Shown: positions 9,859 through 37,692 of the stretch, piece after piece | Layout: every line of letters begins with the position of its first letter | Position numbering within the stretch: the first letter of the stretch is position 1 | NCBI GenBank assembly: GCA_963692865.2 | Contig: OY843592.1 | Location: forward strand, 2,927,356-2,991,355 | Length of the DNA stretch: 64,000 bases | Origin: a bacterium | GTDB lineage: Bacteria; UBA8248 | Reading direction: 5' to 3' | The notes under the pieces: generated by a model | What the model was told of the DNA's origin: nothing | The model's database searches: none | Seen by the model: the letters and a program-made list of their open reading frames with translations, nothing else | Translations under genes and position numbers: made by a program

Positions 9859-9904
9859 CTCGAAAACAGGCGAGAAAACGGCAATCATCTGCGCATCCTC
9901 CTTC

Positions 9905-16282: not shown

Positions 16283-16369
16283 GACGTGAAATTTCAGATG
16301 TCAAATCGAACATCAGGCAATGAAGTGTGTCGAAATATCTCGTATCGCATGAAAAATTGCAGAAAACGA

Positions 16370-22467: not shown

Positions 22468-22479
22468 GAGCGAGCCGAG

Positions 22480-23646
22480 GTGACGGGAAGTCCGGATTCC
22501 GGGGGCGCGTTCGAACTCAAACCGGCCCAGCGGATGCTGGCCGAGACGGTGTATGAACTGAGCCGCCGCCACGTCGCGCCGCGCGCCGCCGAGATCGACG
22601 AGAACGACGAATACCCCGAAGATATTTTCGAACTCCTGAAATCCCACGACCTGCTAGGCCTCTACGTTTCCGAAGCCTACGGCGGGGCGGGCCTCGGCAT
22701 TCTGGAAACGTGCGTCGCCATCGAGCAGATGGCGCGTTTTTGCTCGAACTCCCCTCTTTTCTTCTCCGTCCACCTGCTCGCCACGCGGCCCGTCGCCATC
22801 GGCGGAAGCGAGGAGCAGAAGCGGACCTACCTCACCGGCGTCGCTCGGGGCGAGTTGCGGCCCGCCTTCTCGCTCACCGAACCGCACGCGGGTTCCGACG
22901 CCGCGAGCATATCGACGAGGGCGGTCCGGGACGGGGATTCGTGGGTCATCAACGGCCAGAAGTGCTATTGCACGGGGTCGAGCGTGGCGGACTTCATCAC
23001 CGTGGCGGCGAAGACCGAACCCGGGATGGGAGCGAGGGGGATATCGTTTTTCATCGTCCCCAGGGGCGAGTTCCGCGTGGGGCGGCACGAGCGCAAGATG
23101 GGGATGCGGGGCATCCCGACGTGCGAGGTTTTTCTCGAAAACGCGCGCGTTCCCCTTGAAAACATGATCGGCGAACAAGGCCTGGGCTTCAAGACCGCCA
23201 TGCTCGGCTTCAACCAGGCGCGGCCCGCCATCGGCGCGCGGGGCGTGGGTCTGGCGCAGGGGTGTCTCGATTGCGCCGGAAACTACGCAAAAGAGCGCGA
23301 AGCCTTCGGAAAACCCATCGCGCAGCATCAGGCGGTGCAGTTCATGCTCGCCGACATGTTCATGGAAACGGAAGCGGCCCGTATGCTCGTTTACCGCGCC
23401 GCCTCGATGGTGGATAATGGCCGCTACCAAAAAGAAGACGTGCATTTCATCTGCGCCGCGAAATGCTACGCCACCGACGCCGCCATGAAGACCGCCGTAG
23501 ACGGCGTTCAGGTGCTCGGCGGCGCGGGCTATATGAAAGACCATCCGCTCGAGCGTTTCATGAGAGACGCCAAGCAACTGCAGATTATCGAGGGTACCAA
23601 CCAGATACAGCGCATGGTCATCGCCCAGAATTTATTGAGTCTATAG
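22480..23646 (+). CDS. acyl-CoA dehydrogenase (tandem paralogue)
   Basis: 388 aa. Collinear with the upstream ACAD over its whole length (SLTEPHAGSDAASIST, QVLGGAGYMKDHPLERFMRDAK). GTG start. Confidence 0.95.
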   Translation: MTGSPDSGGAFELKPAQRMLAETVYELSRRHVAPRAAEIDENDEYPEDIFELLKSHDLLGLYVSEAYGGAGLGILETCVAIEQMARFCSNSPLFFSVHLLATRPVAIGGSEEQKRTYLTGVARGELRPAFSLTEPHAGSDAASISTRAVRDGDSWVINGQKCYCTGSSVADFITVAAKTEPGMGARGISFFIVPRGEFRVGRHERKMGMRGIPTCEVFLENARVPLENMIGEQGLGFKTAMLGFNQARPAIGARGVGLAQGCLDCAGNYAKEREAFGKPIAQHQAVQFMLADMFMETEAARMLVYRAASMVDNGRYQKEDVHFICAAKCYATDAAMKTAVDGVQVLGGAGYMKDHPLERFMRDAKQLQIIEGTNQIQRMVIAQNLLSL

Positions 23647-23674: not shown

Positions 23675-24283
23675 ATGAGCCAGATGATTGAAATCCTGCA
23701 GCCCACCTCCTTCATCCGCGCGGGCGACCACCCCCTCGCGGAGCGGCCCGAGGACATCGGGGGCCTCAGGGTCGGCTTCTTCCACAACAACAAGCCCAAC
23801 GCCGACGTCCTGCTCGAACAGGTCGAGGAGCTTTTCGCGCGCGAAGACGAGACGCTGCGCGTCGTCCGCTGGGGAAAGCCGAACCCCACCCTCCCCGAAG
23901 ACCGGATTGAGGAATTCATCGAACAGGTGGACGTGGCCGTCTGCGCGGTGGGCGACTGAGGGAGCTGCACGTCATGGAGTATCCATGACTCGGTGGTGAT
24001 GGAGAAGGCGGGCGTCCCCACGGCCACGTTCTGCTCCAGCGAATTCTCGGCCCTGGGCGCGAACGAGAGAACCGCCCTGGGCATGCCCGGCCTCCCGATA
24101 GTCGTCGTGGCGCATCCGGTGGGCGGCATCGCGCCCGAACAAGCGCGCGCCCTGGGCGACGGCGCCGTGGAGGAGATTCGGCGAATCCTCACGAGCGACG
24201 CCGAATCGCTCAGGCGGGAATACCGCGAGCGCGAATACGTCCCGCCCCGCAAGACGGTGCGCCACAAGGCGCTCTTCGCTTAG
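23675..24283 (+). CDS. UGSC-motif selenoprotein (in-frame UGA at 23957-23959 read as Sec)
   Basis: ORFs 23675..23959 and 23993..24283 are in the same frame (offset 318 nt). Read-through gives ...VDVAVCAVGD-U-GSCTSWSIHDSVVMEKAGVPTATFC... A hairpin follows 11 nt after the [11 protein letters not shown] before the ATG. Confidence 0.75.
23971..23989 (+). promoter_or_regulatory. candidate bacterial SECIS hairpin
   Basis: GTCATGG-agtat-CCATGAC, a perfect 7-bp stem with a GU-containing loop, starting 11 nt 3' of the UGA at 23957. Confidence 0.6.
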
Positions 24284-24295
24284 GCGGGCCAGACA

Positions 24296-25372
24296 GTGAA
24301 CGATCACTCTCAGGAGAATATCGTGTTCGAGAGCGAGCGCGTGAAGGTGCGCGACACGCCCGAGGCGATGGCGCGTCTGCTCGAAGCAAGAGGCTGGGGC
24401 GACGGCCTGCCCGTCGTCCCCCCCACGCCCGAGCGCGTCGCCCGGATGGTGGAGGGCGCGGGTCTCGCGCCCGATGCGGAGATCGGCCTCATGCCCCCTC
24501 GGCAGGGAGTCGTCACGGTCGAAGTCCTCGCCGTGAACGCCGTGATGGCAGGCTGTCTTCCGGCATATATGCCCGTTCTCGCGGCAGCGGCCCGCGCGGT
24601 GCTCGAACCCGAGTTCTCGCTACACGCGATTCAGGCGACGACCCACCCGGTGGCGCCCCTCATCATCGTGAACGGCCCCATCGTCGAAGATATCGGCTTG
24701 AACGCCGAGTATGGATGCTTCGCCCCCGGCAACCGCGCGAACGCGACGATTGGCCGAGCGATGCGCCTGACGCTTCTGAACGTGGGCGGCGCGAGCCCCG
24801 GCGTTCTGGACCGCGCCACGCAAGGCTCACCCGCCAAATACGCGTACTGCATCGCAGAGAACGAGGCGGCCTCGCCCTGGGAGCCGCTCCACGTCGAGCG
24901 CGGTTTCTCTCCCGGTGATAGCGCGGTGACGCTCGTGGGCTGCGAGGGTCCCCACAACATCAACGATCACGTGAGCCATACGGCGGAGGGAATACTCGCC
25001 ACCGCCGCCGACACCATGGCCGTCATGGGGTGTAACAATTTCTATCTGCGCGGCGAGCCCGTTCTCGCCCTCGGCCCCGAGCACGCGGCCACCATCGCGG
25101 GTGACGGCCTCACAAAGGCGGACGTGAAGCAGAGAATTTTCGAACTCGCCCGAAAGCCCGTGCGGCAGTTAAAGCGCGGCGCCATGTGGGGGATGCAGAC
25201 CTGGGGCGAGGAGATAGCCGAGCACGAAGACGACGATGATTTCGAGATTCCCCTTCTCGACGGGCCCGAGGACCTGCTCCTTATCGTCGCGGGCGGCGCG
25301 GGCAAGCACTCGTGCTGCATGCCCACCTTCGGTCCCACGCGCTCGGTGACCCGGAAGATCGACACCACCTGA
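24296..25372 (+). CDS. conserved protein of unknown function (358 aa), probably co-transcribed with the UGSC selenoprotein
   Basis: Clean 358-aa ORF 12 nt after the UGSC stop, with normal codon bias for this genome (...LLEARGWGDGLPVVPPTPERVARMVEG...). No domain recognised. GTG start. Confidence 0.7.
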   Translation: MNDHSQENIVFESERVKVRDTPEAMARLLEARGWGDGLPVVPPTPERVARMVEGAGLAPDAEIGLMPPRQGVVTVEVLAVNAVMAGCLPAYMPVLAAAARAVLEPEFSLHAIQATTHPVAPLIIVNGPIVEDIGLNAEYGCFAPGNRANATIGRAMRLTLLNVGGASPGVLDRATQGSPAKYAYCIAENEAASPWEPLHVERGFSPGDSAVTLVGCEGPHNINDHVSHTAEGILATAADTMAVMGCNNFYLRGEPVLALGPEHAATIAGDGLTKADVKQRIFELARKPVRQLKRGAMWGMQTWGEEIAEHEDDDDFEIPLLDGPEDLLLIVAGGAGKHSCCMPTFGPTRSVTRKIDTT

Positions 25373-25870
25373 TAAGGGATTGTTGAAAGACCCTGCCTGC
25401 AGAACCCTGAAGAAGATAGAAATTGCCGGTTCGCTCACTGCCTTGAATCGGGCGCTTTTCCCTCACCCCGAGCAGTAGCCTCCCGACTCGCCTCATCCTG
25501 AGTAGCGGCGAAGCCGCGTATCGAAGGTCAATCGCAACCAATGCGGGAGCGATTGCCTCTCGCCCGGCGCGAAGCGCTCGACTCCCCTCGTCCTTCGATA
25601 CAAACGCTCCTTCATCGGGGCCGTTGAAAAAGCCTGTTCCGGGGTCGGGCGGACACACAGGTCCGCCCCTGCGTTTCGTTTCGCAGAGGTTGGCAGGTCA
25701 GACATATATGTCTGGTATATCATGCGACCCGTATTGTGAAGGCGAAAAGGCAGGGCCGCATGATATGCGGCCCCTACGGCGGGATACCGACCGGCCCGCA
25801 AGGGGTTTTTCAACAACCCCTTCTCAGTCGCGTTTGACCTTCGGCGGCTACTCAGGGTGAGGAGGGGTGG
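25373..25870. repeat. intergenic mosaic of interspersed palindromic repeat modules
   Basis: GTTGAAA(A/G) modules at 25376-25395, 25621-25632 and, inverted, 25806-25820. 37-bp module CCTCATCCTGAGTAGCGGCGAAGCCGCGTATCGAAGG at 25491-25527. GTCAGACATATATGTCTGG at 25697-25715. Confidence 0.8.
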
Positions 25871-26000
25871 TTGCGCGCCAAGGCGGCAAACGCGTCGTCA
25901 ATGCCAAGCGATGAAAGAGAAAATACCGCCGTCATTCCGGCATCAATTCCGACCCATGAGGAAGGGATGGTTATTTTGAAAACCGCTCTTTTTCGGAAGT

Positions 26001-26600
26001 CTAGCAAGCCGCTTCCGGCGGCGGCAACATGGCTTCCACCTGTCCGACGATGGATTGCGGAAAACTCCGATCGGGGGAGACGCGCGCCAACACCCTGAGT
26101 CCGAGAAACAGACCGAACAAAGATTTCGCCGTTTGGTCCGGAACAACTCGGGGGCATATCTCCCCGCAAGCCTGCCCCCGCTTGATGGAAGCGTGAAAAA
26201 ACTCCGTCATGCCGGCGAACGCGCCGGCCACGAACGAAGCCACCTCTTCATCATGCGCCCCGAGCTCGAGGGCGACGTTGACTTCGAAGCAGCCCTCGCT
26301 CGACTCGTTGTCCACAGCCTTCGAGGCGACCGCTTTGAATACAGAGATCACCGCTCTGCGCGGCGAAGAATCCTTTTCGAGTTCCTGTATCGGAACTACG
26401 CGGTAAAACCGGTCGTAATGGTAAAGCGCCCGCAAGAACATCTGACGCTTGCCGCCGAACGCATGGTACAGGCTGCCTCGCAAGAGACCCGTCGCCTTCT
26501 CCAGATCCCGAATCGACGTCGCCGAATAGCCATAGCGCCAAAACTGATCCATTGTTTTCGTCAAAATTTCGTCCATATCGAACTTTGGCGCTTTCCCCAT
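26001..26600 (-). CDS. TetR/AcrR-family transcriptional regulator
   Basis: N-terminal HTH ILTKTMDQFWRYGYSATSIRDLEKATGLLRGSLYHAFGGK. 199 aa. Confidence 0.9.
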   Translation of the reverse strand: MGKAPKFDMDEILTKTMDQFWRYGYSATSIRDLEKATGLLRGSLYHAFGGKRQMFLRALYHYDRFYRVVPIQELEKDSSPRRAVISVFKAVASKAVDNESSEGCFEVNVALELGAHDEEVASFVAGAFAGMTEFFHASIKRGQACGEICPRVVPDQTAKSLFGLFLGLRVLARVSPDRSFPQSIVGQVEAMLPPPEAAC

Positions 26601-26915
26601 GGGTCCTCTCTTCGTTTTTCCCCGTTTTTACGCCGAATCACGGAATTCCTGCTAACGCCATGTCAAAGCTGTAGCGGCTCAAGCCAGCCCACCAATTTGA
26701 TGGTTAGCACACGGGCAAGCCCGTTTCAAGAAAAATCGTTCCCCGGCGGATTATTCCCCGGGAAGCGCTCGTGCGCCTGCGTTTAGAGTCTTTTTTGCCC
26801 GGTGGCGCGGGATAAATCCATTCATTTGCATTGCCTCGTGTTCGGCCCCGTGCTAGATTCTCGTTTCCGGGGAAGCCGACCTTTCTTTTCTGCCGAGACG
26901 CGGGAGGAACAACCC

Positions 26916-27308
26916 ATGGCGAAGCAACGAATCGACTCCGACAAGGTGAAGCCTGTCGCCGCGTATTCCACGGGCTGGAAGGTATCGAACGGACATCTCA
27001 TCATGCTGGCGGGCCAGGTGGCGGTCGCCGTGGACGGCAACACCATCGGCGGCGACGACATCCGGGCACAGACCCGGCAGGTGTACGAGAACATCAAGGC
27101 CGCGCTGGAGGCGGCGGGCGCCGGGATGGCGGACATCATCCGCCTCACGGTCTATATCACCGATCCTGCGAATGTCCCGGGATGTATGGAGGTGCGGCAG
27201 ACCTACTTCGGCGAACCCTACCCTGCGAGCACGCTCCTGATCGTGAGCGGCCTGGCGAAACCGGAGTGGCTCATCGAGATCGACGCGATCGCCTTCGTGG
27301 AAGACTAG
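26916..27308 (+). CDS. ridA: RidA/YjgF-family reactive-intermediate deaminase
   Basis: Start moved to the ATG at 26916 behind GGGAGGA. AAYSTGWKVSNGHLIMLAGQVAV...IRLTVYITD...PASTLLIVSGLAKPEWLIEIDAIA. Confidence 0.9.
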   Translation: MAKQRIDSDKVKPVAAYSTGWKVSNGHLIMLAGQVAVAVDGNTIGGDDIRAQTRQVYENIKAALEAAGAGMADIIRLTVYITDPANVPGCMEVRQTYFGEPYPASTLLIVSGLAKPEWLIEIDAIAFVED

Positions 27309-27312
27309 AAAC

Positions 27313-28167
27313 ATGAGCAGCCGCAGGGCCATCGCCGATACGCTCGTGCTCGTCAAGGGAGGCGGAGACCTCGCCACAGGCGTCGCGCACCGTCTGTACC
27401 GCGCGGGGTTTCCACTCGTTATCACCGAAATTGAAAACCCCACCATGGTGAGGCGCACCGTCTCCTTCGCCGAATGCCTCTACGCCGATGGATGGCAAGT
27501 AGAGGGCGTAACCTCCGCCCGGGCGGACGGCGAAACTCCCTCGGAAAAAGCAATGAGCGCGCGCGCCATCCTGGAGGCGGGTTCGATTCCGGTGATGGTG
27601 GACCCGCGCGCAGACGCAATCGCCCACGTCCGGCCCGCCGTCGTGGTCGATGCGATTCTGGCGAAGCGGAACCTCGGCACGCGCATCGATGACGCGGAGG
27701 TCGTGGTCGGCCTGGGGCCGGGCTTCACGGCGGGCGTGGATTGCCACGCCGTCATCGAGACCTCGCGGGGGCATGACCTGGGACGGGTGATTCTGGAGGG
27801 CGCGGCCAAACCGAACACGGGCGTTCCGGGGCCCATCGGCGGCTACACCACCGAGCGGCTCTTGCGCGCTCCCAAGGCCGGCGTCTTCACCTCCATCGCC
27901 CGAATCGGCGACACGGTGCGCGCGGGAGAAGCCGTCGCCCGCGTGGACGGCGAGGAGGTGCGCTCCGCCATCGACGGCGTTTTGCGCGGGCTTCTGAGAG
28001 ACGGCATCGAGGTGAGCGACGGCTTCAAGGTGGGCGACGTCGACCCGAGGGCCGAGCCCTCCCATTGCCACACGATATCGGATAAATCGCGCGCCATCGG
28101 CGGCGGCGCGCTCGAGGCCATCATGATGTTCCTGTTCGGCGTTTCAGCCATGGAGTATGCGAATTGA
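27313..28167 (+). CDS. yqeB: YqeB-family selenium-dependent molybdenum hydroxylase system protein
   Basis: LVLVKGGGDLATGVAHRLYRAGFPLVITEIENPTMVRRTVSFAECLY matches my recollection of the YqeB-family N-terminus. ~284 aa. True TGA stop at 28165-28167. Confidence 0.78.
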   Translation: MSSRRAIADTLVLVKGGGDLATGVAHRLYRAGFPLVITEIENPTMVRRTVSFAECLYADGWQVEGVTSARADGETPSEKAMSARAILEAGSIPVMVDPRADAIAHVRPAVVVDAILAKRNLGTRIDDAEVVVGLGPGFTAGVDCHAVIETSRGHDLGRVILEGAAKPNTGVPGPIGGYTTERLLRAPKAGVFTSIARIGDTVRAGEAVARVDGEEVRSAIDGVLRGLLRDGIEVSDGFKVGDVDPRAEPSHCHTISDKSRAIGGGALEAIMMFLFGVSAMEYAN

Positions 28168-29048
28168 GTACCGAGATATTGAGTGAAACGGTGGAAAACG
28201 GCGTCTACAACATCGGACGCAGCGAAATCCCCATCAACGAGACCAACGGCAACTCCTTCGTTCCCCCTGCGCAGTTCTATCTGGCGGCGGGCGACGCGCT
28301 CGAGCGCATCGCGTGGGCGGTGAGCCAAAACCTGCCCGTCCTCCTCGTGGGGGAGACCGGCGTCGGCAAGACCCTCTCGGTGCGCCACCTCGCCCACATG
28401 ACGAACAACGGCTTCCGGCGCGTGAACCTAAACGGCATGACCACGGTCGATGAGTTCGTGGGCAAGCTGATGATCAACGAACAGGGCACCTACTGGGTGA
28501 ACGGCATCCTGGTCGACGCCATGGAATCGGGCGACTGGCTGCTTATCGACGAGATCAACGCATGTCTGCCGGAAATCGCCTTCTGCCTGCACAGCCTGCT
28601 CGACGACGACCGCATGATCGTCTTGTCCGAATACGACGGCCGCATCGTCAAGCCCCACCCGAATTTCAGGCTCTTCGCCAGCATGAACCCGCACGAGGAC
28701 CGCAGATACGGCGGCACCAAGCCCCTGAACGAGGCGCTTCTGGATCGCTTCCCGGTCACCGTGAAGATGGACTACCTGCCTTTCGAGGCGGAAGTCGAGG
28801 TCATCATGCAGCAGAGCGGGAACCGCGACGAGGAGCTCGTCAAGCGCATGGTGCGCGTGGGCCACGACGTGCGCGAGGCCATGCAGAACGAGAAGGTGTT
28901 CTGCACGTTCAGCACCCGGCGCCTCATCGACTGGGCGCGCATGGCGGCGCAGTTCGACCCCATGGAAGCCGCCGTCTCGACGATTTTCAGCAAGGTCAAC
29001 TCTTTCGACGCCAAGGTGCTCGAGGACATCGTAGACAACCACTTCTAG
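28164..29048 (+). CDS. AAA+ ATPase, AAA_5/MoxR class (CoxD/CobS/NorQ-like)
   Basis: Walker A LLVGETGVGKT, Walker B WLLIDEINA, NPHEDRRYGGTKPLNEALLDRF sensor/arginine region. TTG start overlapping the yqeB stop. Confidence 0.88.
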   Translation: MSTEILSETVENGVYNIGRSEIPINETNGNSFVPPAQFYLAAGDALERIAWAVSQNLPVLLVGETGVGKTLSVRHLAHMTNNGFRRVNLNGMTTVDEFVGKLMINEQGTYWVNGILVDAMESGDWLLIDEINACLPEIAFCLHSLLDDDRMIVLSEYDGRIVKPHPNFRLFASMNPHEDRRYGGTKPLNEALLDRFPVTVKMDYLPFEAEVEVIMQQSGNRDEELVKRMVRVGHDVREAMQNEKVFCTFSTRRLIDWARMAAQFDPMEAAVSTIFSKVNSFDAKVLEDIVDNHF

Positions 29049-29062
29049 CCGGGAGATGAGGC

Positions 29063-30834
29063 ATGGAGCGCCGACGCGCCCGTCTCGAAGCGCTCGCGCA
29101 GGTGACCGCGCACGATTACGACCTCGCCCTGAACTTCGGCCCCAAGGCGAAGAACGGCGAGGACGCCATTCACGTCGAGGACCCCGAACAGACCCTGGCG
29201 CGCCTGGGCGGCGGACTCAACGACGAGCACGTCCTCAGATTCCAGAAAGGCATGACGCTCATCGAAGTGGCCCACAAAATCCACGGCACGTTCCGCTGGG
29301 CGGGGCGCGCCGCGCTCGCGAACCGCGAGAGGCCGGGTCTTTTCCACATCTGGCACACGCTCGAGGACGCGCGGTGCGAAAACCGCCTCGCCGAATCGCT
29401 GCCCGGCACCAGGAAGAATTTCCGCGCCTTCATTCTGCCTGCCATCGAGGCGGCCGAACGCAACCAGATGAGCGGGCAACTCCCCTTGTTTCTCCAGATC
29501 CAGTGGGGAATCTACCTCGCCGGGATCGGGCAGACGCCCGGCGTCCCCTCCTCGCGGCCCGGAGACTTGCCGGCGGCCTGGTTCGACACCGCCGTCGTCC
29601 AGATATTCCACAGGCTCACCCCGCTGGTAGACCGCGCCTGCGCCGCCGATGACCCCAAGACCGCCTTCGATTGCGCGAACGAGATCTACGACGCCATCCA
29701 GCGCTATCTCACCGAAGAGCAACTGGCCCGGATGAGCGAGGATCAGGACCTCTCGGATATCCCCGAGGAAATTTTAGAGAAAATCGAGAGCCAGAACCTC
29801 GAAGGCGACGACGACGAAGCGATGGAGATGCTTCACCCCGAAGCGGCGGAGGAAATCGACGAAGAGGACGTGGGCGAGCAGGTCGAACTGAGTCCCGAGG
29901 AACTCGCGGCGCTCGGGCACTGGGCCGCCCCCTGGTTCGAGTTAGAGGGCAACAAGAAGGAAATCCACCCCACCGCCGAGCATCCCGACGAGCGCACGGT
30001 CGTACTGCCGCCGGAGGGCAAGGCCGAGGAATACGCGGCGGTCATCGACAATGCGGGCAGCCAAATCAAGGTGCTGGTGTGGAAGCTCATGCAGATCATC
30101 CAGGAGAGAACCTACACCCGCTACAGCGGCTCGCACCGCTCGGGCAAGCTGAACCTCCCCAAGCTGTGGAAACAGCGGCTGGGGAAATTCCATCTCTTCC
30201 ACCGCAGGGAAGAGCCCGACAACTCGACGTGTGCTTCACGCTGCTCGTGGACGAGAGCGGCAGCATGAACCGCGAGTCGAAATACATGGCCGCCCGGGAG
30301 GCGACCATCTTCTTCGCCGAAGCGCTCGACCGCATCGACGTGCCCTTCGAGGTCATCGGCTATTCCACCGAGAGCTCGGAAGCCGCCATGGCGGCGGCCC
30401 TGGGCCACATCCCGGCGTTCAAGTTCCGCCACATCCGGCACTCGCCGCTGCAACACCGCATCTACAAGGGCTTTGAGGATCAGTTCGCCCAGGTGAAGCA
30501 CAGGCTCGTCAACATCTATCCGCGCTTCAACAACTGGGACGAGGAGCACCTGCTCTTCGCCTACCGCAGGCTCATCCAGCGGCCCGAGGAGGAGAAGATC
30601 ATCATCATCACCTCCGACGGCCAGCCCAACGGGGACGCGACCCACCTCGTGAACACGGTGAACCGGCTGCAGAAACTCGGCGTCCGCGTCATCGGCGTCG
30701 GCGTGGTGGACCCATTCGTGGAGCAGATCTACCCCAACCACATCGTCGTGCAGGACCTCTCCCAGCTTTCCACCGAACTCGTGAACATCCTGAGGCGCGA
30801 ACTGCTCGGCGGGTTGGAGAGCCGCGCTTGGTAG
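29063..30834 (+). pseudogene. CobT/CoxE-like protein with acidic linker and C-terminal VWA (MIDAS) domain, interrupted by a frameshift near 30205-30215
   Basis: The N-terminal 380 aa are in the frame of ORF 29063..30268. The VWA domain (LDVCFTLLVDESGSM...IIIITSDGQPNG) is in the frame of ORF 29671..30834 (frame offset -1). There is no start codon upstream of the MIDAS motif in the second frame. Confidence 0.7.
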
Positions 30835-31655
30835 CGCGAGAGAGCGTCGTCCGCTCCCTCGGGGTCGAACCGGGCCAGAGCGTCGCGGCTGTCGGCGGGG
30901 GCGGAAAAACGAGCCTGCTGACGGCCATCGCCAGGCAGTTTCACGCCCAAAACGGAATGCCTGCGATTCTCACGACGACTACGAAGATTTTCGCGCCCCT
31001 CCCCGAAGAAGGAATCCATCTCGCTTTGGGCGACGCCGAGACGCTCGCAGAGAACCTCCGCCCCTACATGGGCGCCTGCGGCATATCCTGGCTCGCCAGA
31101 AAGCGCGAGGGCGAAGCCCCAATTCCGGGCCGGGAGAGCGAGCGGCGCATGAAGCTGGGCGGTTTTACGCCTTCGGAAATTGCCCGCTTCACGCCGGGTG
31201 ACGCCCTGACGCTCATCGAGGCGGACGGCGCGAGAAGACTGCCCATCAAGGCGCCCGGCCCCGGTGAGCCCGTCCTGCCCGAAGGCCTGGACGCCGTGCT
31301 GGGCGTCATCGGGCTGGACGCGCTGGGCGCGCCCTTGAGCGAGGCGCACGTCTTCCGCCCCGATGCGCTCTCACGCATATGCGATCTGGGAGCCGGAGAA
31401 GAGATTACGGCGGAGACGGTCGGGAAGTTGTGCGCGCATCCTGATGGTCTTTTTCATAAAGCGGAGGCCGGCGCCCGCAAGTGGATCGTCATCAACAAGG
31501 CGGATCTGGAAACCTCGCTGGAAAAATTGCGCGAAATCGCATATATTGTATGGGAGTTTGCCGGAAAACCTCATGGCCCGGCGGACGGCATCCTCTTTAC
31601 GTCTTGTACGAACAACGAATGTGAAGTATTCATACGTATCACACAAGATGCGTAA
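30828..31655 (+). CDS. yqeC: YqeC-family selenium cofactor biosynthesis / hydroxylase accessory protein
   Basis: P-loop-like AAVGGGGKTSLLTAIA and ILTTTTKIF motifs typical of YqeC. 275 aa. TTG start behind GGAGA, overlapping the VWA stop. Confidence 0.78.
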   Translation: MVARESVVRSLGVEPGQSVAAVGGGGKTSLLTAIARQFHAQNGMPAILTTTTKIFAPLPEEGIHLALGDAETLAENLRPYMGACGISWLARKREGEAPIPGRESERRMKLGGFTPSEIARFTPGDALTLIEADGARRLPIKAPGPGEPVLPEGLDAVLGVIGLDALGAPLSEAHVFRPDALSRICDLGAGEEITAETVGKLCAHPDGLFHKAEAGARKWIVINKADLETSLEKLREIAYIVWEFAGKPHGPADGILFTSCTNNECEVFIRITQDA

Positions 31656-31686
31656 CGACTGCAATTCCAAGCAGGCGGAGCAAGGA

Positions 31687-32832
31687 ATGAGCAAGGACGT
31701 ATTCAGGGAAATGGCGAAACTCAAGGAAGACGGCCAGGGCGGCGCGCTCGCCACCGTCGTGGCCCGCAAGGGGTCCGCGCCCATGAGCGGCGATGCGAAG
31801 ATGCTCGTGCGCGAGGACGGCAGCACGGAGGGCACGGTCGGCGGCGGCTGTCTCGAAGCCGAAGTCTGGGAAACCGCCATGAGCGTCCTGGAGACGGGCG
31901 CACCCGAAAAGCTGCGCTTCGACCTCACCCAGCAGGAAGCCGAAGACAGCGGGCACATCTGCGGCGGCGTGGTGGAGATACTCGTGGAGCCGTTCCAGGC
32001 GTTCCAGGAAGAGTTGCTCGGCGAGATCAACCGCATCAGAACCGAGGGCGGCAGCGCCGCGCTGGCGACCATCGTTCAGCCGGGCGATATCGACGCGCCG
32101 AATGCGGAGAACAGGAAGATGCTCTTCCGGCGCGACGGCAGCGCCGTGGGCGATATTCCCACCTACTCGACGGAGATATGGGCGGAGAGCACCCAGATCA
32201 TCCGAAACGGCAGCCCCACGCTCCTGCAGTTCAACAGGGACGCCGCGCGCGCCGGAGAAAAGCGCTCGACGCTCACCGAGGCCACCGAAATTTTCGTCGA
32301 ACCCATATCCGGCCAGCCCCTCGTCTATATTTTCGGCGGCGGTCACGTCTCCTTCTGCGTCGCGCAGGCGGCCTACCTCGCGGGATTCCGCGTTTCGGTC
32401 GTCGAGGACAGACCCTCGTTCGCCAACAAGGAGCGCTTCCCGATGGCGGAATCGTTCCACGTGGGGGAATTCCCTGAAATTTTCGAGAAAATCCCGGTCG
32501 ATGAGTCCGACTACCTGGCCATCATCACCCGAGGCCACGCGAACGACGAGGTCGTCCTCGAGTGGGCGATGAAGTCCGACGCGCGCTACATCGGGATGAT
32601 TGGCTCCAAAAGCAAGGTGCTGCTCACCTATCGCCACCTCCAGGACAAGGGGTATGACCGCGGCGAACTCATCGAGCGCGTCCATGCGCCCATAGGCCTC
32701 GACATCGGCGCCGATACGCCGGGCGAGATCGGGGTGGCCATCGTCGCCGAACTCATCCGGCACCGCCGCAAAGGCGAGGCGCAGGGCGAAGGCGCGGGCA
32801 GCAAGAGGGTGCAACTCAGAAGAAAATCCTAA
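31687..32832 (+). CDS. xdhC: XdhC/CoxI(CoxF)-family molybdenum-hydroxylase accessory protein
   Basis: Start at the ATG at 31687 (GGAG 6 nt upstream). GALATVVARKGSAPMSGDAKMLVREDGSTEGTVGGGCLEAEV (XdhC_CoxI N-domain, duplicated) and the Rossmann-like IFGGGHVSFCVAQAAYLAGFRVSVVEDRP. Confidence 0.88.
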   Translation: MSKDVFREMAKLKEDGQGGALATVVARKGSAPMSGDAKMLVREDGSTEGTVGGGCLEAEVWETAMSVLETGAPEKLRFDLTQQEAEDSGHICGGVVEILVEPFQAFQEELLGEINRIRTEGGSAALATIVQPGDIDAPNAENRKMLFRRDGSAVGDIPTYSTEIWAESTQIIRNGSPTLLQFNRDAARAGEKRSTLTEATEIFVEPISGQPLVYIFGGGHVSFCVAQAAYLAGFRVSVVEDRPSFANKERFPMAESFHVGEFPEIFEKIPVDESDYLAIITRGHANDEVVLEWAMKSDARYIGMIGSKSKVLLTYRHLQDKGYDRGELIERVHAPIGLDIGADTPGEIGVAIVAELIRHRRKGEAQGEGAGSKRVQLRRKS

Positions 32833-32912
32833 ATCTTCACGCCGCAGCCGGCCCGTCCGAGGAGGGCCGCATTCCTTAAAACCCGGACCCATGGAAGGTT
32901 CTTGCAGGAACC

Positions 32913-33668
32913 ATGGGTTATCTCCGCAGGCTCATCGGCGCAGCGACGGATTTCCTCATTCCCCCGAAATGCCTCTTGTGTTCGGCTTCCATGAATATCG
33001 GCGAACCGCATGCGATATGCGCGCCATGCACGGAAGCCTTCGAGCGCTTCGAACCGCCCTGGTGCCCGAGATGCGGCAATCCCTTCCATTCCATGACCGC
33101 CCTCGCCCACTCCCCGGCGCACGTCTGCGCGGATTGCCTCGAAAGCGGACATCACTACGACATGGCCCGCGCCATCGGCGCGTATGAGGGCCTGCTGAGG
33201 GACTCGGTCCACCTCTTCAAGTTCCAGGGTTTCACGAAGCTCGCCCGCGAGTTCGCGCCCCTCCTCGCCGGGCTTGCGGCGGAGGAGTTCGGTATCGAAG
33301 ATGACGCGCAGAACGTGGTCGTGACGCACGTGCCCATCGCCCCCGCCCGCTGGCGGACGAGAGGCTTCGATCAGGCGAAGCTGCTCGCCCTCATGACGGC
33401 GGAATGCCTGGAGCGGCCCCACGCGGATTTTATCGAGCGCGCGAAGGAGACCCGCTCGCAGACGGGCCTCACCGCGCGGGAGCGGCGCCGGAACATGCGC
33501 GGCGTCTTCGGTGTTCGGAACAAGGGAGTGCGCGAAAAACTCGAAGCGGCCACGTGCATCCTCGTTGACGACGTCGTCACGACCGGCTCGACCGCCTCGG
33601 CCTGCGCCCGCGAACTCAAAAAAGCAGGCGCCGAAGCGGTGCACCTGCTCACGATATGCAGGTCTTGA
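32913..33668 (+). CDS. comF: ComF-family phosphoribosyltransferase-like protein
   Basis: N-terminal Zn-ribbon cysteines (PPKCLLC...CAPC...CPRCG...CADC) and PRTase motif ILVDDVVTTGSTA. Confidence 0.88.
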   Translation: MGYLRRLIGAATDFLIPPKCLLCSASMNIGEPHAICAPCTEAFERFEPPWCPRCGNPFHSMTALAHSPAHVCADCLESGHHYDMARAIGAYEGLLRDSVHLFKFQGFTKLAREFAPLLAGLAAEEFGIEDDAQNVVVTHVPIAPARWRTRGFDQAKLLALMTAECLERPHADFIERAKETRSQTGLTARERRRNMRGVFGVRNKGVREKLEAATCILVDDVVTTGSTASACARELKKAGAEAVHLLTICRS

Positions 33669-33793
33669 AGGCGAGAGTTTTCGTAGCGCGACCTGTCCCT
33701 ACGGATTAAATCTTCAAAAAACCACGAACAAAATAACGAAACCAAGCAAATATGACGGAAGGCATAACAACGATTTGAATGACAACAAAATAG

Positions 33794-33839
33794 TTGACAA
33801 CATATTTGATGTATGATTAAATTCAACAGATATGTTGAA
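33794..33839 (+). promoter_or_regulatory. candidate promoter plus palindromic operator of the low-GC island
   Basis: TTGACA (33794-33799), 17 nt, TTAAAT (33817-33822). Perfect palindrome TTCAACA-gata-TGTTGAA at 33822-33839. Lies in an AT-rich ~200-bp leader. Pattern match only. Confidence 0.35.
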
Positions 33840-33868
33840 TCACAAAGAAATTTACGAAAGGAATTCGT

Positions 33869-35101
33869 ATGAAATCATCCACTGGCCGCTGGGTGAGCGG
33901 CGACGACTTTTTTGATCGTGAACCCGAATTACAGATACTGGAAGCACAAGTCCAAGACCGCAATCACGTATTGTTGACCGGACAGCGGCGCATGGGAAAA
34001 ACCAGCATTGCCCGAGAACTCGGGAGGTGGCTAGAAGCCAAAGACTGGGTTTTCCTCTTCGCAGACGTAGAGGGGGCAGCTTGTCCGGAGGACGTTATCG
34101 CCCAAATCGCCCAAGCTGCGCATCCGGTTCGCGCGCTCTCCTCGCGTTTCACCGCCTGGTCTGAGCGCTTCTTTAGCGACAACATCGAGGAAATCAACGC
34201 GCTCGATTTTGGCGTGAAGTTCCGCGCCGGGCTGGATGCAGGCAGCTGGCGACGTCACGGAGAGCGACTGTTTCGAGATTGCGCCGAGTATGACAAGCCT
34301 GTTTTGCTCGTCATCGACGAATTGCCGATCTTCCTGAAACGGATGCTCCACAATGACGGCGATGCACGGCGGGTCGACGAGTTCATGAGTTGGCTGCGCG
34401 GCGTGCTTCAGGCGCTGGGAGAAGATTCTCCAGTCCTCATGTTATCAGGAAGCATCGGGCTGGAGCCTCTTATGCGCAGACTCGGCCTGCCCGACCGCAT
34501 CAACCATCTGTACCCCTTTCGCCTGGGTCCGTGGAGCCGCGACACCTCCATCGAGTGTTTCGAACATCTCTCGGAGAGTTACGAAATATCCGTCGAGGCC
34601 GGGGTGGCGGATGCAGTATACGAAACCTTGGGAGTCGGCATACCTCACCATGTGCAGTCTTTCTTTGCGCGTTTGCGGGATTTCGCCACGATGCAGGAGC
34701 GGGAGCGGATAACGGTTGAAGACGTCGGCGAAGTCTATCGCAACGCGCTTCTGGGGGCTTCGGGACAAAATGATCTCGTACACTACGAAACACGCCTGAA
34801 AGAAGGCATCGAGGATGAAAACTACTCCATCGCCATGGAGATTCTGGCCGAGGCGGCGACTCTGGAGGTATTCACGCCCGCTGCCAGAAAGTGTCTCGAA
34901 CGCTTGTATTCCACGGTGGTAGACGATGCGCCCAGTCGCATTGCGGACATTATCGAAGTCCTCGCGTACGACGGGTATCTGGAATCCGGCGATGGCGGCT
35001 ACCGTTTCCCGTCGCGCTTGCTCAAGGATTGGTGGTCGGCGCGCTTCCGCGATCATCACACGCCCCTCGAAAAACGCCGACCCGAGGACAAATCACAATA
35101 G
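33869..35101 (+). CDS. AAA+/P-loop ATPase (archaeal-ATPase / ATPase_2-like) with C-terminal winged-helix-like tail
   Basis: Walker A LTGQRRMGKTSIA and Walker B PVLLVIDELP. 410 aa. Lower G+C and A/T-ending codons relative to the flanks. Confidence 0.8.
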   Translation: MKSSTGRWVSGDDFFDREPELQILEAQVQDRNHVLLTGQRRMGKTSIARELGRWLEAKDWVFLFADVEGAACPEDVIAQIAQAAHPVRALSSRFTAWSERFFSDNIEEINALDFGVKFRAGLDAGSWRRHGERLFRDCAEYDKPVLLVIDELPIFLKRMLHNDGDARRVDEFMSWLRGVLQALGEDSPVLMLSGSIGLEPLMRRLGLPDRINHLYPFRLGPWSRDTSIECFEHLSESYEISVEAGVADAVYETLGVGIPHHVQSFFARLRDFATMQERERITVEDVGEVYRNALLGASGQNDLVHYETRLKEGIEDENYSIAMEILAEAATLEVFTPAARKCLERLYSTVVDDAPSRIADIIEVLAYDGYLESGDGGYRFPSRLLKDWWSARFRDHHTPLEKRRPEDKSQ

Positions 35102-35109
35102 AGGACCCA

Positions 35110-37692
35110 ATGAACGAAACGTCCAACAGGCAAATCCGCAAGTTCAACCCGGGCGCATACCAGTCGGATGAGGAGTTGATGGAGCAATTCGTCGTCCGAA
35201 ACCGCGAACTGGAAATCGTACTCGAAGTGCTCCGCGCGAACATCGACTCCCCATCGTGTCAGCACGTTCTGGCCGTCGCCCCGCGCGGTCGAGGGAAAAC
35301 CATGCTTCTGGCCCGCGCCGCAGCGGAAATCCGCGCAAACGACGAACTCGCCCGACGCCTGTTGCCCGTCCGTTTCATGGAAGAGAGCCAAGAGATTTTC
35401 CATATGGCCGACTTCTGGCTGGAGGCGCTGTTTCACCTGGCCAGAGAGAGCGCCCCTCACGATCCCGAACTCGCGCAAGAACTGCGAGCTACGCACGCCG
35501 ACCTGGCCGCTCACTGGGGAGATCGGTCGCTTGAAGACCGCGCCCGCGCCGCCGTTCTGCAGGCGGCGGATCGACTGGACAGAAAACTCGTGCTGATGGT
35601 CGAGAACCTGCAAGCTCTGTGCGACAGCGTGGATGCGGATTTCGGCTGGAAGCTGCGCGGGGCGTTGCAGTCCGAACCCAAGATAATGCTGCTCGCCTCC
35701 GCCACCAGCCGCTTCGAGAGTCTGGACGATGCGCAGCAACCCTTCTTCGAGTTGTTTCGTATCATCTGCCTGGAGCCGCTGACCACCGAAGAGTGCCGTC
35801 TCCTGTGGCAGGCGGTGAGTGGGGACGAAGTGAGCGGGCGCGAGATCAGGCCGCTTCAGATACTGACCGGAGGCAGCCCCCGCCTCCTCGTCATCGTCGC
35901 CGGATTCGCGCGCCATCACTCCCTTCGCCAGTTGATGGAAGAGTTGGTGACGCTGATAGACGAGCACACCGAGTATTTCCGAAGCCATCTGGAAGTCCTG
36001 GCCAAAACTGAACGCCGCGTCTATCTCGCGGTAATCGACCTTTGGCGGCCGTCGAGCACCTCCGAAATCGCGGCGCGCGCGCGCATGGACGTTCGGACCG
36101 TATCGACCATGCTCGGGCGGCTTGTCGAGCGGGGTGCGGTGATCGTGGAAGGAAAAGGCAGGAAGCGCCATTACGCCGCCGCCGAACGTCTCTACAGCAT
36201 TTACTACAAGCTGCGGCGCGAAAGAGACGAAGCGGCCGTCGTGGAGAATCTGATCCGTTTCATGGTGGTTTTCTACAACGAAGAAGAACGGGCGGAGATG
36301 TTCCCCCGGCTGATTCGGGAGGCGACGGAATCAGCCGCCATTCGGGAGGGTCTCGACAGGGCGGCCGCCGGACTCCCGGAATTCGAGAGCCTGTATACCG
36401 GCATCATGCAGAGAAGCCGGTGGGAGCATCTAGTGGAGGAGATTGCAACGGCGTTCAAAGGGAGGGACTTCCAGAAAGTCATCGAGACCATAGGCCGCGC
36501 GTTTGCCGTCGATGGCGCAAACCGGTCTCAAGCGTCGGAGTCCATCATTGCCTGGCTATTGCTTCGGAAGGCGTATTCACATCAAGAACTAGGCGATTTC
36601 GAAGCGGCGATAACAACCTATGAAGAGATAGCCGAACGCTTTGCCGACAGCGACGAACCTGAAATCCAACAGCGCGTCGCTACGGCGTTGGTAGACAAGG
36701 GAGATGTGCTGGAAGAACTCGGCGACTTCAAGGCGGCGATTGCAACATACAGTGAGTTAGTCAATCGTTTTGGTGGCAGCAACACACTGGATATCCAATG
36801 GTGGGTCGCTACAGCTTTGGTTTGCAATGGAAATGCACTGGAAGAACTCGGGGATTTCGAAGCGGCGATTATCACCTACGAGGAAGTTGTCAAGCGTTTT
36901 TCAAACAGCAACGTACCTGAAATCCAGTGGTGGGTCGCTGCAGCGTTAATCAATCAGGGGGATGTACAAAGCGAACTTGGCAATTGCGAAGTAGCAATAG
37001 CGACTTACAATGAAGTAGTAAAGCGCTTTGGTAACATCAACTCGCCGGAGATTCAGGAGCGGGTCGCCGTTGCGTTGGTCTTCAAGGGAATTGTGCGAGA
37101 AAAACTCGGCGATTTCGAAAGGGCGATTGCGGCCTATAAAGAAGTGGTCGAACGTTTTATCGACAACAGTGCGCCGGAATTGCAATTGTGGATAGCGAGG
37201 GCATTAGCCGATATGAGTATTGCACAAACTCAAATCGGTCGCGCAGATGAAGCACTGCACACTTGCGAGGAACTCGAACGAAGACTCGGAACATTCCTGA
37301 CCGGCGAAGAAGAAACCGAGTTTCGGTGGCGAGTGATGTACACGCGAGTCTTGGCTCTACTAGGAAAGGGAGAACACCGAGCCGCCATGGACGCGTTTCG
37401 CTCCGCGTATGTCGAGTTCCTTCCTCGCAACGAAATCCCGATTCACGAAATGCTGCGATTAGTGCCTAACTTGATCGCAGCGGGCGCATCGACCCATAAG
37501 CTCGTCGAAATCCTCACGAGCGATGAGACGAAATCCGGCGCGTTGGCACCCCTGATCGTCGCCCTGCGTCAACATGCTGGCGAGGCTGTTCGTGCGCCGG
37601 CGGAAGTGCTCGAAGTGGCTGCGGATATCCTTGAACGTATCGAGGAACAATCAGAGAAAGGTGTTTCCGGGGCTTCCCGACAACCTGAATAA
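35110..37692 (+). CDS. STAND-like NTPase - wHTH - TPR-like repeat protein (860 aa)
   Basis: ATG at 35110, 8 nt after the upstream stop. Walker A VAPRGRGKTML and Walker B LVLMVENLQ. MarR/TrmB-like wHTH (VYLAVIDLWRPSSTSEIAARARMDVRTVSTMLGRLVERGAVIVEGKGRKRHY). C-terminal helical repeats. Confidence 0.8.
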   Translation: MNETSNRQIRKFNPGAYQSDEELMEQFVVRNRELEIVLEVLRANIDSPSCQHVLAVAPRGRGKTMLLARAAAEIRANDELARRLLPVRFMEESQEIFHMADFWLEALFHLARESAPHDPELAQELRATHADLAAHWGDRSLEDRARAAVLQAADRLDRKLVLMVENLQALCDSVDADFGWKLRGALQSEPKIMLLASATSRFESLDDAQQPFFELFRIICLEPLTTEECRLLWQAVSGDEVSGREIRPLQILTGGSPRLLVIVAGFARHHSLRQLMEELVTLIDEHTEYFRSHLEVLAKTERRVYLAVIDLWRPSSTSEIAARARMDVRTVSTMLGRLVERGAVIVEGKGRKRHYAAAERLYSIYYKLRRERDEAAVVENLIRFMVVFYNEEERAEMFPRLIREATESAAIREGLDRAAAGLPEFESLYTGIMQRSRWEHLVEEIATAFKGRDFQKVIETIGRAFAVDGANRSQASESIIAWLLLRKAYSHQELGDFEAAITTYEEIAERFADSDEPEIQQRVATALVDKGDVLEELGDFKAAIATYSELVNRFGGSNTLDIQWWVATALVCNGNALEELGDFEAAIITYEEVVKRFSNSNVPEIQWWVAAALINQGDVQSELGNCEVAIATYNEVVKRFGNINSPEIQERVAVALVFKGIVREKLGDFERAIAAYKEVVERFIDNSAPELQLWIARALADMSIAQTQIGRADEALHTCEELERRLGTFLTGEEETEFRWRVMYTRVLALLGKGEHRAAMDAFRSAYVEFLPRNEIPIHEMLRLVPNLIAAGASTHKLVEILTSDETKSGALAPLIVALRQHAGEAVRAPAEVLEVAADILERIEEQSEKGVSGASRQPE
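36586..37230 (+). repeat. five tandem 129-bp (43-aa) coding repeats inside the STAND gene
   Basis: ELGDFEAAITTYEEIAERFADSDEPEIQQRVATALVDKGDVLE and four similar units (ELGDFKAAIATYSELVNRF..., ELGDFEAAIITYEEVVKRF..., ELGNCEVAIATYNEVVKRF..., KLGDFERAIAAYKEVVERF...). Confidence 0.8.

Follow-up and report, generated by a model that had tools for sequence, protein, structure and literature searches.

We asked why a bacterial operon encodes a AAA+ ATPase and a VWA-domain protein between YqeB and YqeC, the accepted markers of selenium-dependent molybdenum hydroxylases and the labile-selenium trait, in a stretch of DNA that holds no such hydroxylase. The window, that is, the whole stretch analysed, comprises 64,000 nucleotides. 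Overall, we consider it reasonably probable that this conserved, translationally coupled operon acts at a late stage in maturing a molybdenum hydroxylase of the xanthine-oxidase family that is encoded elsewhere in the genome. The arrangement had not been recognised as described in an earlier note on this DNA, and no description of it was found in the literature that we searched.

Layout and integrity of the operon

ORF calling gave six co-directional, tightly coupled genes with the following neighbours:

26001..26600, minus strand: TetR-family regulator (TetR_N and TetR_C_13 matches)
26916..27308, plus strand: Rid (YjgF/YER057c/UK114) family protein, operon gene 1 (PF01042, 95 bits)
27313..28167, plus strand: YqeB (TIGR03309, 363.3 bits)
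28164..29048, plus strand: AAA+ ATPase of the AAA_5/CbbQ_C (CobS/NorQ/CbbQ-like) type (AAA_5 100.5 bits, CbbQ_C 39.9 bits)
29063..30222, plus strand: VWA adaptor, N-terminal part, helical family-specific domain and acidic linker (upstream frame)
30223..30834, plus strand: VWA adaptor, C-terminal VWA/MIDAS domain (CobT_C 67.5 bits, VWA 30.6 bits)
30828..31655, plus strand: YqeC (TIGR03172, 157.2 bits; PF19842, 116 bits)
31687..32832, plus strand: XdhC-family Moco-binding/insertion chaperone (PF02625, 88.8 bits; PF13478, 128.6 bits)
32913..33668, plus strand: ComF-like double-zinc-ribbon phosphoribosyltransferase (DZR_2 and Pribosyltran matches)

The junctions are spaced, in gene order, by +4, -4, +14, -7 and +31 nt. 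The end of yqeB, including its stop codon, shares 4 nt with the ATPase gene, which starts with TTG, and the end of the VWA gene shares 7 nt with yqeC. YqeB and YqeC, 2.7 kb apart with YqeB upstream, co-occur in one operon, and they enclose the AAA+/VWA pair in a single translationally coupled unit, as the earlier note had proposed. That note called the first gene RidA; membership of the broad Rid family (PF01042) stands, but the RidA subfamily cut-off of TIGR00004 was not reached (77.7 bits against 106.25). The Rid-family gene is an optional member, found in 23 of the 31 complete loci of the YqeB-AAA-VWA-YqeC-XdhC order (type A). The TetR-family gene is divergent to the operon, with 315 bp between them, and is a candidate local regulator; the same divergent gene is kept in the 10 closest genomes (67-77% identity) and is missing from L001. 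The ComF-like gene begins after an 80-nt gap and lies next to XdhC in 26/31 complete type-A loci; its membership of the operon is uncertain.

Five of the six genes were described correctly as open reading frames, whereas the VWA gene, taken for a single frame of ~590 aa, is split over two. Its acidic linker (35% acidic residues) and C-terminal domain with the MIDAS motif DESGS are present. However, the N-terminal 386 codons lie in the frame of 29063..30268 and the VWA domain in that of 29671..30834; one base is missing at ~30222/30223, and the domain is reached only via a -1 frame change. The window reads GACAA-CTCGAC at this site, where the sequence is GACAAGCTCGAC in 13 relatives and GACAACCTCGAC in one. 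The base is present in 14/14 relatives compared, whose homologues are intact (588-592 aa), and dN/dS against eight intact orthologues is 0.03-0.08 (~0.05) on either side of the deletion. Together, these sequence comparisons point to either a very recent deletion or an assembly error. We regard it as unlikely that this organism is losing the module, the deletion having turned the adaptor gene into a pseudogene and left the operon non-functional. In favour of loss, the deletion falls outside any homopolymer and cuts the VWA/MIDAS domain off from the N-terminal part of the adaptor. However, the low dN/dS on both sides and the retention of the base in every compared relative speak against it, and all other operon genes are intact. 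Occasional splits of this kind are also present in other assemblies (YqeB in L003; VWA in L050, L070 and L072), which suggests assembly errors.

YqeB, YqeC and XdhC

The YqeB and YqeC assignments in the earlier note were well founded. YqeB aligned to positions 1-255 of the 256 in TIGR03309, far above the cut-off of 220 bits, and YqeC exceeded the cut-offs of both TIGR03172 (73 bits) and PF19842 (27.6 bits). The E. coli counterparts matched the window proteins at 288 bits (YqeB) and 74 bits (YqeC). YqeC carries a P-loop-like GGGGKTS motif, and the PDB search returned for YqeB weak hints of Rossmann-like and biotinyl-like relatives. The XdhC/CoxI-like gene was also identified correctly: its product has both the N-terminal XdhC_CoxI domain (PF02625) and the C-terminal Rossmann domain (PF13478) and matched PDB 2WE7 at 135 bits, although it missed the XdhC equivalog cut-offs (TIGR02964, 117.9 against 161.6; NF045664, 311.1 against 350).

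Similar to E. coli yqeB-yqeC-mocA beside xdhABC/xdhD and to E. faecalis EF2563-2564, the operon combines YqeB and YqeC with an XdhC function. YqeB is frequently fused to XdhC (PMC2276186), and in E. coli the two form one 541-aa protein, the XdhC half of which matches the window XdhC at 140 bits. The E. coli gene adjoins yqeC, with hydroxylase genes around it and the AAA+/VWA pair absent. In contrast, the window YqeB stands alone, the motor, adaptor and YqeC genes separate it from XdhC, and neither gene is linked to any hydroxylase, mocA or selD. Genetic evidence shows that the Se-dependent use of purines needs YqeB (PMC11448449). YqeC is dispensable in C. difficile, which counts against our preferred explanation.

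Conservation across genomes

The type-A order recurs in 38 species-level Nitrospinota genomes, with VWA identities of 53-97%. Gene order and strand are alike in all 31 complete loci. In a second Nitrospinota lineage (type B), AAA/VWA follows YqeB alone, and a CoxMLS-like hydroxylase lies 5-6 kb from YqeB-AAA-VWA in L003, L046 and L049; in the MAG K_2_bin.39, the three genes and a hydroxylase are found in one genome on separate contigs. The window ATPase is 63-71% identical to its type-B and type-C homologues.

In type C, comprising 21 Chloroflexota genomes and metagenomic contigs, the AAA/VWA clade (AAA 63-69% and VWA 34-38% identical to the window) lies directly 3′ of hydroxylase structural genes for FAD, FeS and split Mo subunits. 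The clade is thus linked to Mo-hydroxylase structural genes in another phylum. An XdhC-like gene is often ~8 kb off in these loci, and YqeB and YqeC are not nearby. Both halves of the split Mo subunit have Eubacterium barkeri nicotinate dehydrogenase as their best match (3HRD_A at 250 bits, with the runner-up at 165; 3HRD_B at 240 bits, with the runner-up at 167). Nicotinate dehydrogenase is the structurally defined Mo-Se enzyme.

Selenium or sulfur

The markers in the operon may point to selenium as the chalcogen handled. We give a lesser chance to the module handling sulfur, or Moco insertion alone, in lineages that are mostly aerobic. In that case, YqeB and YqeC would take part in handling the cofactor or in sulfuration, and the motor would aid the insertion of a sulfurated cofactor. 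The type-C loci fit this explanation, since a motor with XdhC but without nearby YqeB/YqeC is not intrinsically tied to selenium markers, and the known precedent, CoxD, acts with sulfur. Moreover, anaerobes make up ~80% of the organisms that have the Se-cofactor trait; the survey reporting this leaves Nitrospinota unmentioned and notes that YqeB or YqeC alone may serve Se-unrelated processes. However, a gene for a UGSC selenoprotein, which contains an in-frame TGA and is kept in relatives, lies 3 kb upstream of the operon. It shows that the host handles selenium and decodes selenocysteine, hence that SelD must exist, presumably encoded elsewhere in the host genome. The similarity of the type-C hydroxylase to nicotinate dehydrogenase argues in the same direction.

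Search for the client enzyme

Pfam and NCBIfam scans of ~55 window ORFs detected no Mo-hydroxylase subunit, W-AOR, MocA or SelD. Likewise, phmmer searches of all six-frame window ORFs found no match to E. coli XdhA/B/C/D, MocA, YgfK, SsnA or SelD, nor to one W-AOR and two other hydroxylases, and none of the remaining gaps could hold a gene of at least 300 aa. A client hydroxylase was found neither within 26-31 kb in the window nor within 10 kb on either side of the type-A arrangement (0 of 38 Nitrospinota genomes). With the type-B hydroxylase as query, none of the best 120 matches was a close orthologue on a type-A chromosome, and selD was absent from the window and from every flank examined. 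The absence of hydroxylase subunits and selD from the 64 kb, asserted in the earlier note, therefore holds. Its further statement that no Moco-synthesis gene is present is not strictly safe because of one ambiguous gene:

63089-63829, minus strand: ThiF/MoeB-family adenylyltransferase (best model MoeB, 222 bits, cut-off 449)

This gene, the VWA frameshift and the upstream UGSC selenoprotein gene had been overlooked.

It is improbable that the XdhC/YqeB/YqeC/motor set serves a pterin enzyme of a different kind, such as a tungsten aldehyde oxidoreductase. An XO-family client was not found for type A, and the best NCBIfam model for XdhC is 'XdhC family aldehyde oxidoreductase maturation factor' (311 bits, cut-off 350). 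In L004, a distant VWA homologue (39% identity) lies 2.7 kb from a tungsten aldehyde:ferredoxin oxidoreductase (AFOR-family) gene, which is accompanied by a ThiS/MoaD-like gene. However, an AFOR gene is absent from the window and the type-A flanks, and 21 type-C and 3 type-B loci tie the clade to XO-family subunits. A xanthine-oxidase-family hydroxylase thus remains the client that we infer.

Family of the AAA+ motor and VWA adaptor

The ATPase has the features of the MoxR class, to which it had been assigned: an AAA_5 core with Walker A (GETGVGKT) and Walker B (LLIDE) motifs, a CbbQ_C lid and a VWA/MIDAS partner gene 14 nt away. Its nearest PDB matches are CobS (97.5 bits), NorQ (82) and CbbQ (80), and that of the VWA protein is CobT (105 bits); Foldseek matched the VWA domain to the NorD VWA and the MDN1 MIDAS domain. 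The N-terminal part of the adaptor had no Pfam or NCBIfam match and matched only 24 clusters (50% identity) among 1.84 billion representatives; its AF2 model is helical, and a PDB fold search gave no match.

The earlier description of a CoxD/E/F-like motor is not supported. The adaptor scored 19 bits with VWA_CoxE (PF05762), below the cut-off of 26.4, compared with 67.5 with CobT_C, and the best models of the ATPase are AAA_5 and CbbQ_C, whereas CoxD is described as a BchI homologue. Judged by sequence similarity, the pair resembles CobS/CobT, NorQ/NorD and CbbQ rather than CoxD/CoxE. The PADLOC models gave no support for an anti-phage MoxR-VWA conflict or defence system: the ATPase had a marginal match of 16.5 bits, and the adaptor, YqeB and YqeC had none. 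It is very improbable that the pair is a CobS/CobT cobaltochelatase, whether genuine or cryptic, or some other chelatase for metals or tetrapyrroles that merely happens to lie among Moco genes: the closest NCBIfam and PDB similarities (CobS and CobT) and the source annotations ('cobaltochelatase CobS' and 'CobT-related') point that way, but the equivalog cut-offs are far off (CobS TIGR01650, 85.1 against 558.6; CobT TIGR01651, 55.4 against 759), the N-terminal 386 aa of the adaptor are family-specific and did not retrieve CobT, the gene tables of the inspected locus contexts listed no CobN-like gene, and in two phyla the pair consistently adjoins genes for YqeB/YqeC/XdhC or for hydroxylase subunits.

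Comparison with known systems and proposed mechanism

CoxD/CoxE/CoxF from Oligotropha carboxidovorans are required for post-translational completion of the XO-family Mo site of aerobic CO dehydrogenase, including ATP-dependent S insertion. The operon likewise encodes AAA+, VWA/MIDAS and XdhC-like proteins together. However, its adaptor has ~590 aa with a unique N-domain (CoxE has 399 aa), its ATPase is of the CobS/NorQ-like type, YqeB and YqeC are included, and the structural genes are not adjacent. CobS/CobT, the closest solved relatives of both proteins, share the AAA_5 motor and the adaptor with an acidic linker and C-terminal CobT_C/VWA domain and, with CobN, follow a motor-adaptor-effector logic; in contrast, the N-terminal domain of the window adaptor is not CobT-like by sequence, and the pair lies among Moco and hydroxylase genes instead of B12 genes. 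NorQ/NorD and CbbQ/CbbO share the CbbQ_C lid, and the window VWA superposes on the NorD VWA of the NorQD complex, in which the adaptor remodels the target and enables metal insertion. Their clients (cNOR and Rubisco) and adaptor N-terminal domains differ, and neither system is linked to Moco genes.

We infer the following physical interactions and catalysed step. XdhC would hold the molybdenum cofactor and hand it over, and the terminal chalcogen would be made ready or carried by YqeB and YqeC, the labile-selenium accessory proteins. The AAA+ hexamer and the VWA/MIDAS adaptor may form a motor-adaptor-effector machine of the CobST/NorQD/CbbQO type; such models exist for CobSTN and NorQD. The N-terminal domain of the adaptor would dock onto either the apo-hydroxylase or the complex of XdhC/YqeB with the cofactor, and its VWA domain and acidic linker would contact the ATPase ring. 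ATP hydrolysis would then remodel the target, so that the cofactor or the terminal Se/S ligand is installed at the buried Mo site. By analogy, this putative step parallels the CoxD-dependent, ATP-driven sulfuration of Mo in folded apo-CO dehydrogenase (PMC4240915).

We speculate further, and only tentatively, that the missing insertase is the CobS/CobT-like pair, which, driven by ATP and together with YqeB, YqeC and XdhC, would put labile Se on Mo in the already folded apo-hydroxylase. If this is true, the AAA/VWA insertase would do for selenium what the CoxD-dependent step does for sulfur, and the Nitrospinota operon would represent the first gene set, complete and compact, for the selenium-utilisation pathway that is least understood. 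The nicotinate-dehydrogenase-like operons of Chloroflexota would then supply a ready client for reconstitution. The operon offers a testable candidate for how hydroxylases gain labile active-site selenium or sulfur.

Composition of the operon

In the operon at 26916-32832 (+), an AAA+ ATPase and a VWA protein, which we call the motor and the adaptor, lie between YqeB and YqeC. Profile searches bore out the identities that the earlier note had given to YqeB, YqeC, XdhC, the ATPase and the VWA protein, with YqeB and YqeC above their cut-offs, and the ORF listing recovered Rid, YqeB, the ATPase, YqeC and XdhC as co-directional frames where that note had placed them. The gene named RidA does encode a Rid-family protein, but its score is under the RidA subfamily cut-off.

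Genes of the operon
26916-27308, +, Rid-family protein; PF01042 match, below the RidA subfamily cut-off
27313-28167, +, YqeB; TIGR03309, 363 bits vs cut-off 220
28164-29048, +, AAA+ ATPase; AAA_5, 100 bits; CbbQ_C lid, 40 bits
29063..30268 (codons 1-386) and 29671..30834 (VWA domain), +, VWA adaptor, split in two frames; CobT_C, 67.5 bits
30828-31655, +, YqeC; TIGR03172, 157 bits vs cut-off 73; PF19842, 116 bits
31687-32832, +, XdhC; PF02625 and PF13478

XdhC scored below both XdhC equivalog cut-offs, the nearest model being NF045664 ('XdhC family aldehyde oxidoreductase maturation factor', 311 vs 350). The motor-adaptor pair carries the Walker A (GETGVGKT), Walker B (LLIDE) and MIDAS (DESGS) motifs, and the adaptor linker is 35% acidic. 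The gene spacings from Rid to XdhC (+4, -4, +14, -7 and +31 nt) are typical of translational coupling. A scan of 25300-34000 found promoter and terminator counts no higher than the shuffled expectation, a neutral result with regard to co-transcription.

A missing base in the adaptor gene

The VWA protein had been taken for a single ORF of ~590 aa, which proved incorrect: codons 1-386 and the VWA domain lie in different frames. Adaptor homologues are unbroken (588-592 aa) and read ...EEPD(K/N)LDVCFTLLVDESGSM, and nucleotide alignment against 14 relatives placed one absent base at ~30222/30223 in the window (GACAA-CTCGAC), outside any homopolymer. A programmed -1 frameshift was ruled out because every relative is in frame and the site, which simply lacks one base, has no slippery heptamer. 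Compared with eight intact orthologues, the adaptor gene shows dN/dS values of 0.03-0.08 on either side of the deletion and is free of pseudogene decay. Therefore, the lesion is either very recent or an assembly error. The YqeB or VWA gene is also split into two ORFs at four relatives' loci, L003 (YqeB, 8206-9061), L050, L070 and L072, and such sporadic frameshifts could be artefacts of how the underlying data were assembled.

Relationships of the motor-adaptor pair

Among solved structures, the ATPase is closest to CobS (97.5 bits), NorQ (82) and CbbQ (80), and the adaptor profile to CobT (105 bits). Neither protein comes anywhere near the equivalog cut-off for CobS or CobT, and to annotate these genes as 'cobaltochelatase CobS/CobT-related' is probably misleading. 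The motor had also been described as CoxD/E/F-like. However, the adaptor's VWA_CoxE score is under the cut-off and CoxD is a BchI homologue according to the literature; therefore, the pair is not CoxD/E-like by descent. A defence-system reading was rejected, as the PADLOC defence models gave no match.

The N-terminal 386 aa of the adaptor are rare, occurring in 24 clusters among 1.84 billion representatives. In the AlphaFold model of the adaptor (pLDDT 76), the N-domain is helical, the acidic linker is disordered and a VWA domain follows. When this model was searched with Foldseek, the VWA part alone matched the PDB, namely the NorD VWA domain of the NorQD complex and the MIDAS domain of midasin; the N-domain had no PDB fold match. 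The single-sequence model of YqeC had a pLDDT of 36, too low to be of use.

Three architectures around one AAA/VWA clade

The operon shares ~90% nucleotide identity with uncultured Nitrospinota MAGs, e.g. SB0662_bin_51 and several complete chromosomes of 4.1-4.5 Mb. A VWA-alignment scan of genomes found 129 relatives, of which 80 loci were kept, and labelling of their flanks revealed one AAA/VWA clade in three architectures. Type A, found in 38 species-level Nitrospinota/'Tectomicrobia' genomes (VWA identity 53-97%), has the order (Rid)-YqeB-AAA-VWA-YqeC-XdhC-(ComF). Order and strand are identical in 31/31 complete loci, with Rid present in 23 and ComF in 26 of them, and seven further loci are cut by contig ends. 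No type-A locus has a hydroxylase within ±10 kb, and the clustered large unassigned ORFs of the type-A flanks are mostly antisense ORFs in high-GC DNA.

Type B, in five genomes and two metagenomic contigs likewise labelled Nitrospinota, consists of YqeB-AAA-VWA and lacks YqeC and XdhC. Three of these loci (L003, L046 and L049) have a CoxMLS-like hydroxylase 5-6 kb downstream, and in the MAG K_2_bin.39 the module and a hydroxylase cluster occupy separate contigs (L045 and L093, respectively). The type-B hydroxylase is nearest to 4-hydroxybenzoyl-CoA reductase and mycobacterial CoxL; when it was used as a query, none of the best 120 matches was assignable to type-A chromosomes.

In type C, from 21 Chloroflexota (Anaerolineales) genomes, AAA and VWA come immediately after genes for an FAD, an FeS and two Mo-binding subunits; 10 of the 21 have an XdhC-like gene in the flank, and no YqeB or YqeC was labelled near any of the 21. 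Both halves of the split Mo subunit match Eubacterium barkeri nicotinate dehydrogenase (NDH), a structurally characterised Mo-Se hydroxylase, best and by a wide margin (3HRD_A, 250 bits vs 165 for the next; 3HRD_B, 240 vs 167). The CO dehydrogenase active-site loop motifs AYxCSFR and AYRGAGR are absent from the type-B and type-C large subunits. When the ATPase, which is better conserved than the adaptor, was sampled instead (452 clusters at E ≤ 1e-20), three of the contexts inspected were of type C and one of type B.

At L005-L007 and L090-L092, the Chloroflexota hydroxylase-AAA-VWA unit sits inside a conserved catabolic cluster (KduI, AP_endonuc_2/xylose-isomerase-like, DHDPS, metallo-beta-lactamase-fold, Zn-ADH, aldehyde dehydrogenase and 2-hydroxyacid dehydrogenases), which hints at the substrate class of the uncharacterised NDH-like enzyme. 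At another locus, L004 (9611-11584 / 14307-16429), a 657-aa adaptor homologue (39% identity) has no ATPase beside it; genes for a tungsten-type aldehyde:ferredoxin oxidoreductase (AOR) and a ThiS/MoaD-like protein are found at a distance of 2.7 kb, and the matching AAA_5 gene is 7.4 kb away. This context suggests a possible different client class.

Client and selenium genes in the window

The absence of a client enzyme and of selD from the window, as claimed in the earlier note, was upheld. Pfam and NCBIfam scans of ~55 window ORFs detected no xanthine-oxidase (XO)-family subunit, tungsten AOR, MocA or SelD. Queries with E. coli XdhA/B/C/D, YgfK, YgfM, SsnA, MocA and SelD, one tungsten AOR and two other hydroxylases (phmmer against all six-frame window ORFs) matched YqeB, YqeC and XdhC only, with no hydroxylase, MocA or SelD. 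No unannotated gap is large enough for a gene of at least 300 aa. The accompanying claim that no Moco-synthesis gene is present overlooked a ThiF/MoeB-family gene, which could belong to a Moco (or thiamine) sulfur relay.

Further features of the window
23675-24283, +, UGSC-family selenoprotein gene; in-frame TGA at 23957-23959 (…AVGD-U-GSCTSW…)
24296-25372, +, conserved 358-aa ORF after the UGSC gene; no match in Pfam, NCBIfam or PDB
62599-63057, -, IscR/Rrf2-type regulator, adjoining the ThiF/MoeB-family gene
63089-63829, -, ThiF/MoeB-family adenylyltransferase; best model MoeB, below every equivalog cut-off

UGSC is a known selenoprotein family, and its in-frame TGA implies that the host decodes selenocysteine and therefore must have SelD elsewhere. 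The same TGA split occurs in ~25 related genomes. This conservation is better evidence for a selenoprotein than the SECIS-like hairpin 14 nt 3′ of the TGA, the stability of which is no greater than that of shuffles (z = -1.1).

One or two co-directional acyl-CoA dehydrogenase paralogues (21295-23646, +) lie just upstream of the module. They recur in most type-A genomes having upstream sequence (L029-L044), including the divergent L036-L039 (VWA identity 54-55%), reflecting either functional linkage or conserved synteny alone. Between comF and pdxA, two STAND-like genes (33869-37692, +; an AAA_16 ATPase, and AAA_16 with a winged helix and a long TPR array) form an insertion relative to L001. 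They occur in some close relatives only (L012, L015, L019 and L022) and therefore represent a variable island beside the operon. Rfam also identified ordinary housekeeping features, namely a PyrR-binding leader (9827-9934, -) 5′ of pyrR-pyrB-pyrC-carAB and one tRNA gene (59842-59913, +).

A putative maturation mechanism

For the CobSTN/NorQD class, recently solved structures back a scheme of motor, adaptor and effector. In CobSTN, the shaft of CobT enters the CobS ring and CobN is bound on the other face of CobT; in NorQD, the NorQ pore receives a VWA finger, and the NorD linker undergoes an ATP-driven twist that enables metal insertion. In CO dehydrogenase, MgATP-dependent Mo sulfuration in the folded apo-enzyme needs the AAA+ protein CoxD, and XdhC proteins bind sulfurated Moco, protect it and insert it (PMC4240915). 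YqeB is often fused to XdhC (PMC2276186), and genetic work shows that Se-dependent use of purines requires YqeB and, less clearly, YqeC (PMC11448449). Our proposal follows from these precedents. The adaptor's unique N-domain would recognise an apo-hydroxylase or an XdhC/YqeB-cofactor complex, and the ATPase ring would then remodel the recognised target so that the cofactor or terminal Se/S ligand could be installed. Two independent genomic contexts, YqeB/YqeC on the flanks and structural genes of the NDH-like type, point tentatively to the selenium-linked branch.

The components are already known, as is the principle that a MoxR-type motor takes part in maturing Mo hydroxylases; what is new is the motor lineage, the adaptor domain, the insertion between YqeB and YqeC and the phyletic pattern. 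Within the incompletely covered literature that we searched (YqeB/YqeC; CoxD/E/F with xanthine dehydrogenase; CobS/CobT with XdhC; Se-dependent hydroxylases with MoxR/VWA/AAA+), we found no description of this operon or of an AAA+/VWA partner for YqeB/YqeC. A Nitrospina genome paper does not mention XO-family enzymes, nor does a large 2016 survey of the Se-cofactor trait mention Nitrospinota; the marker genes of that trait now extend to this mostly aerobic, marine and sponge-associated phylum.

XO-family hydroxylases have a buried Mo site, and how labile selenium or terminal sulfur arrives there is a standing problem. A 2024 genetic study called this the least understood selenium incorporation route and could not assign mechanisms to YqeB/YqeC (PMC11448449). 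Our analysis puts forward the motor and the adaptor as two putative partners; both are strongly conserved, had gone unrecognised and belong to a class that is now structurally understood (CobSTN, NorQD). It also provides two natural experimental handles: the compact Nitrospinota accessory operon, and the Chloroflexota operons in which the same motor accompanies an NDH-like enzyme.
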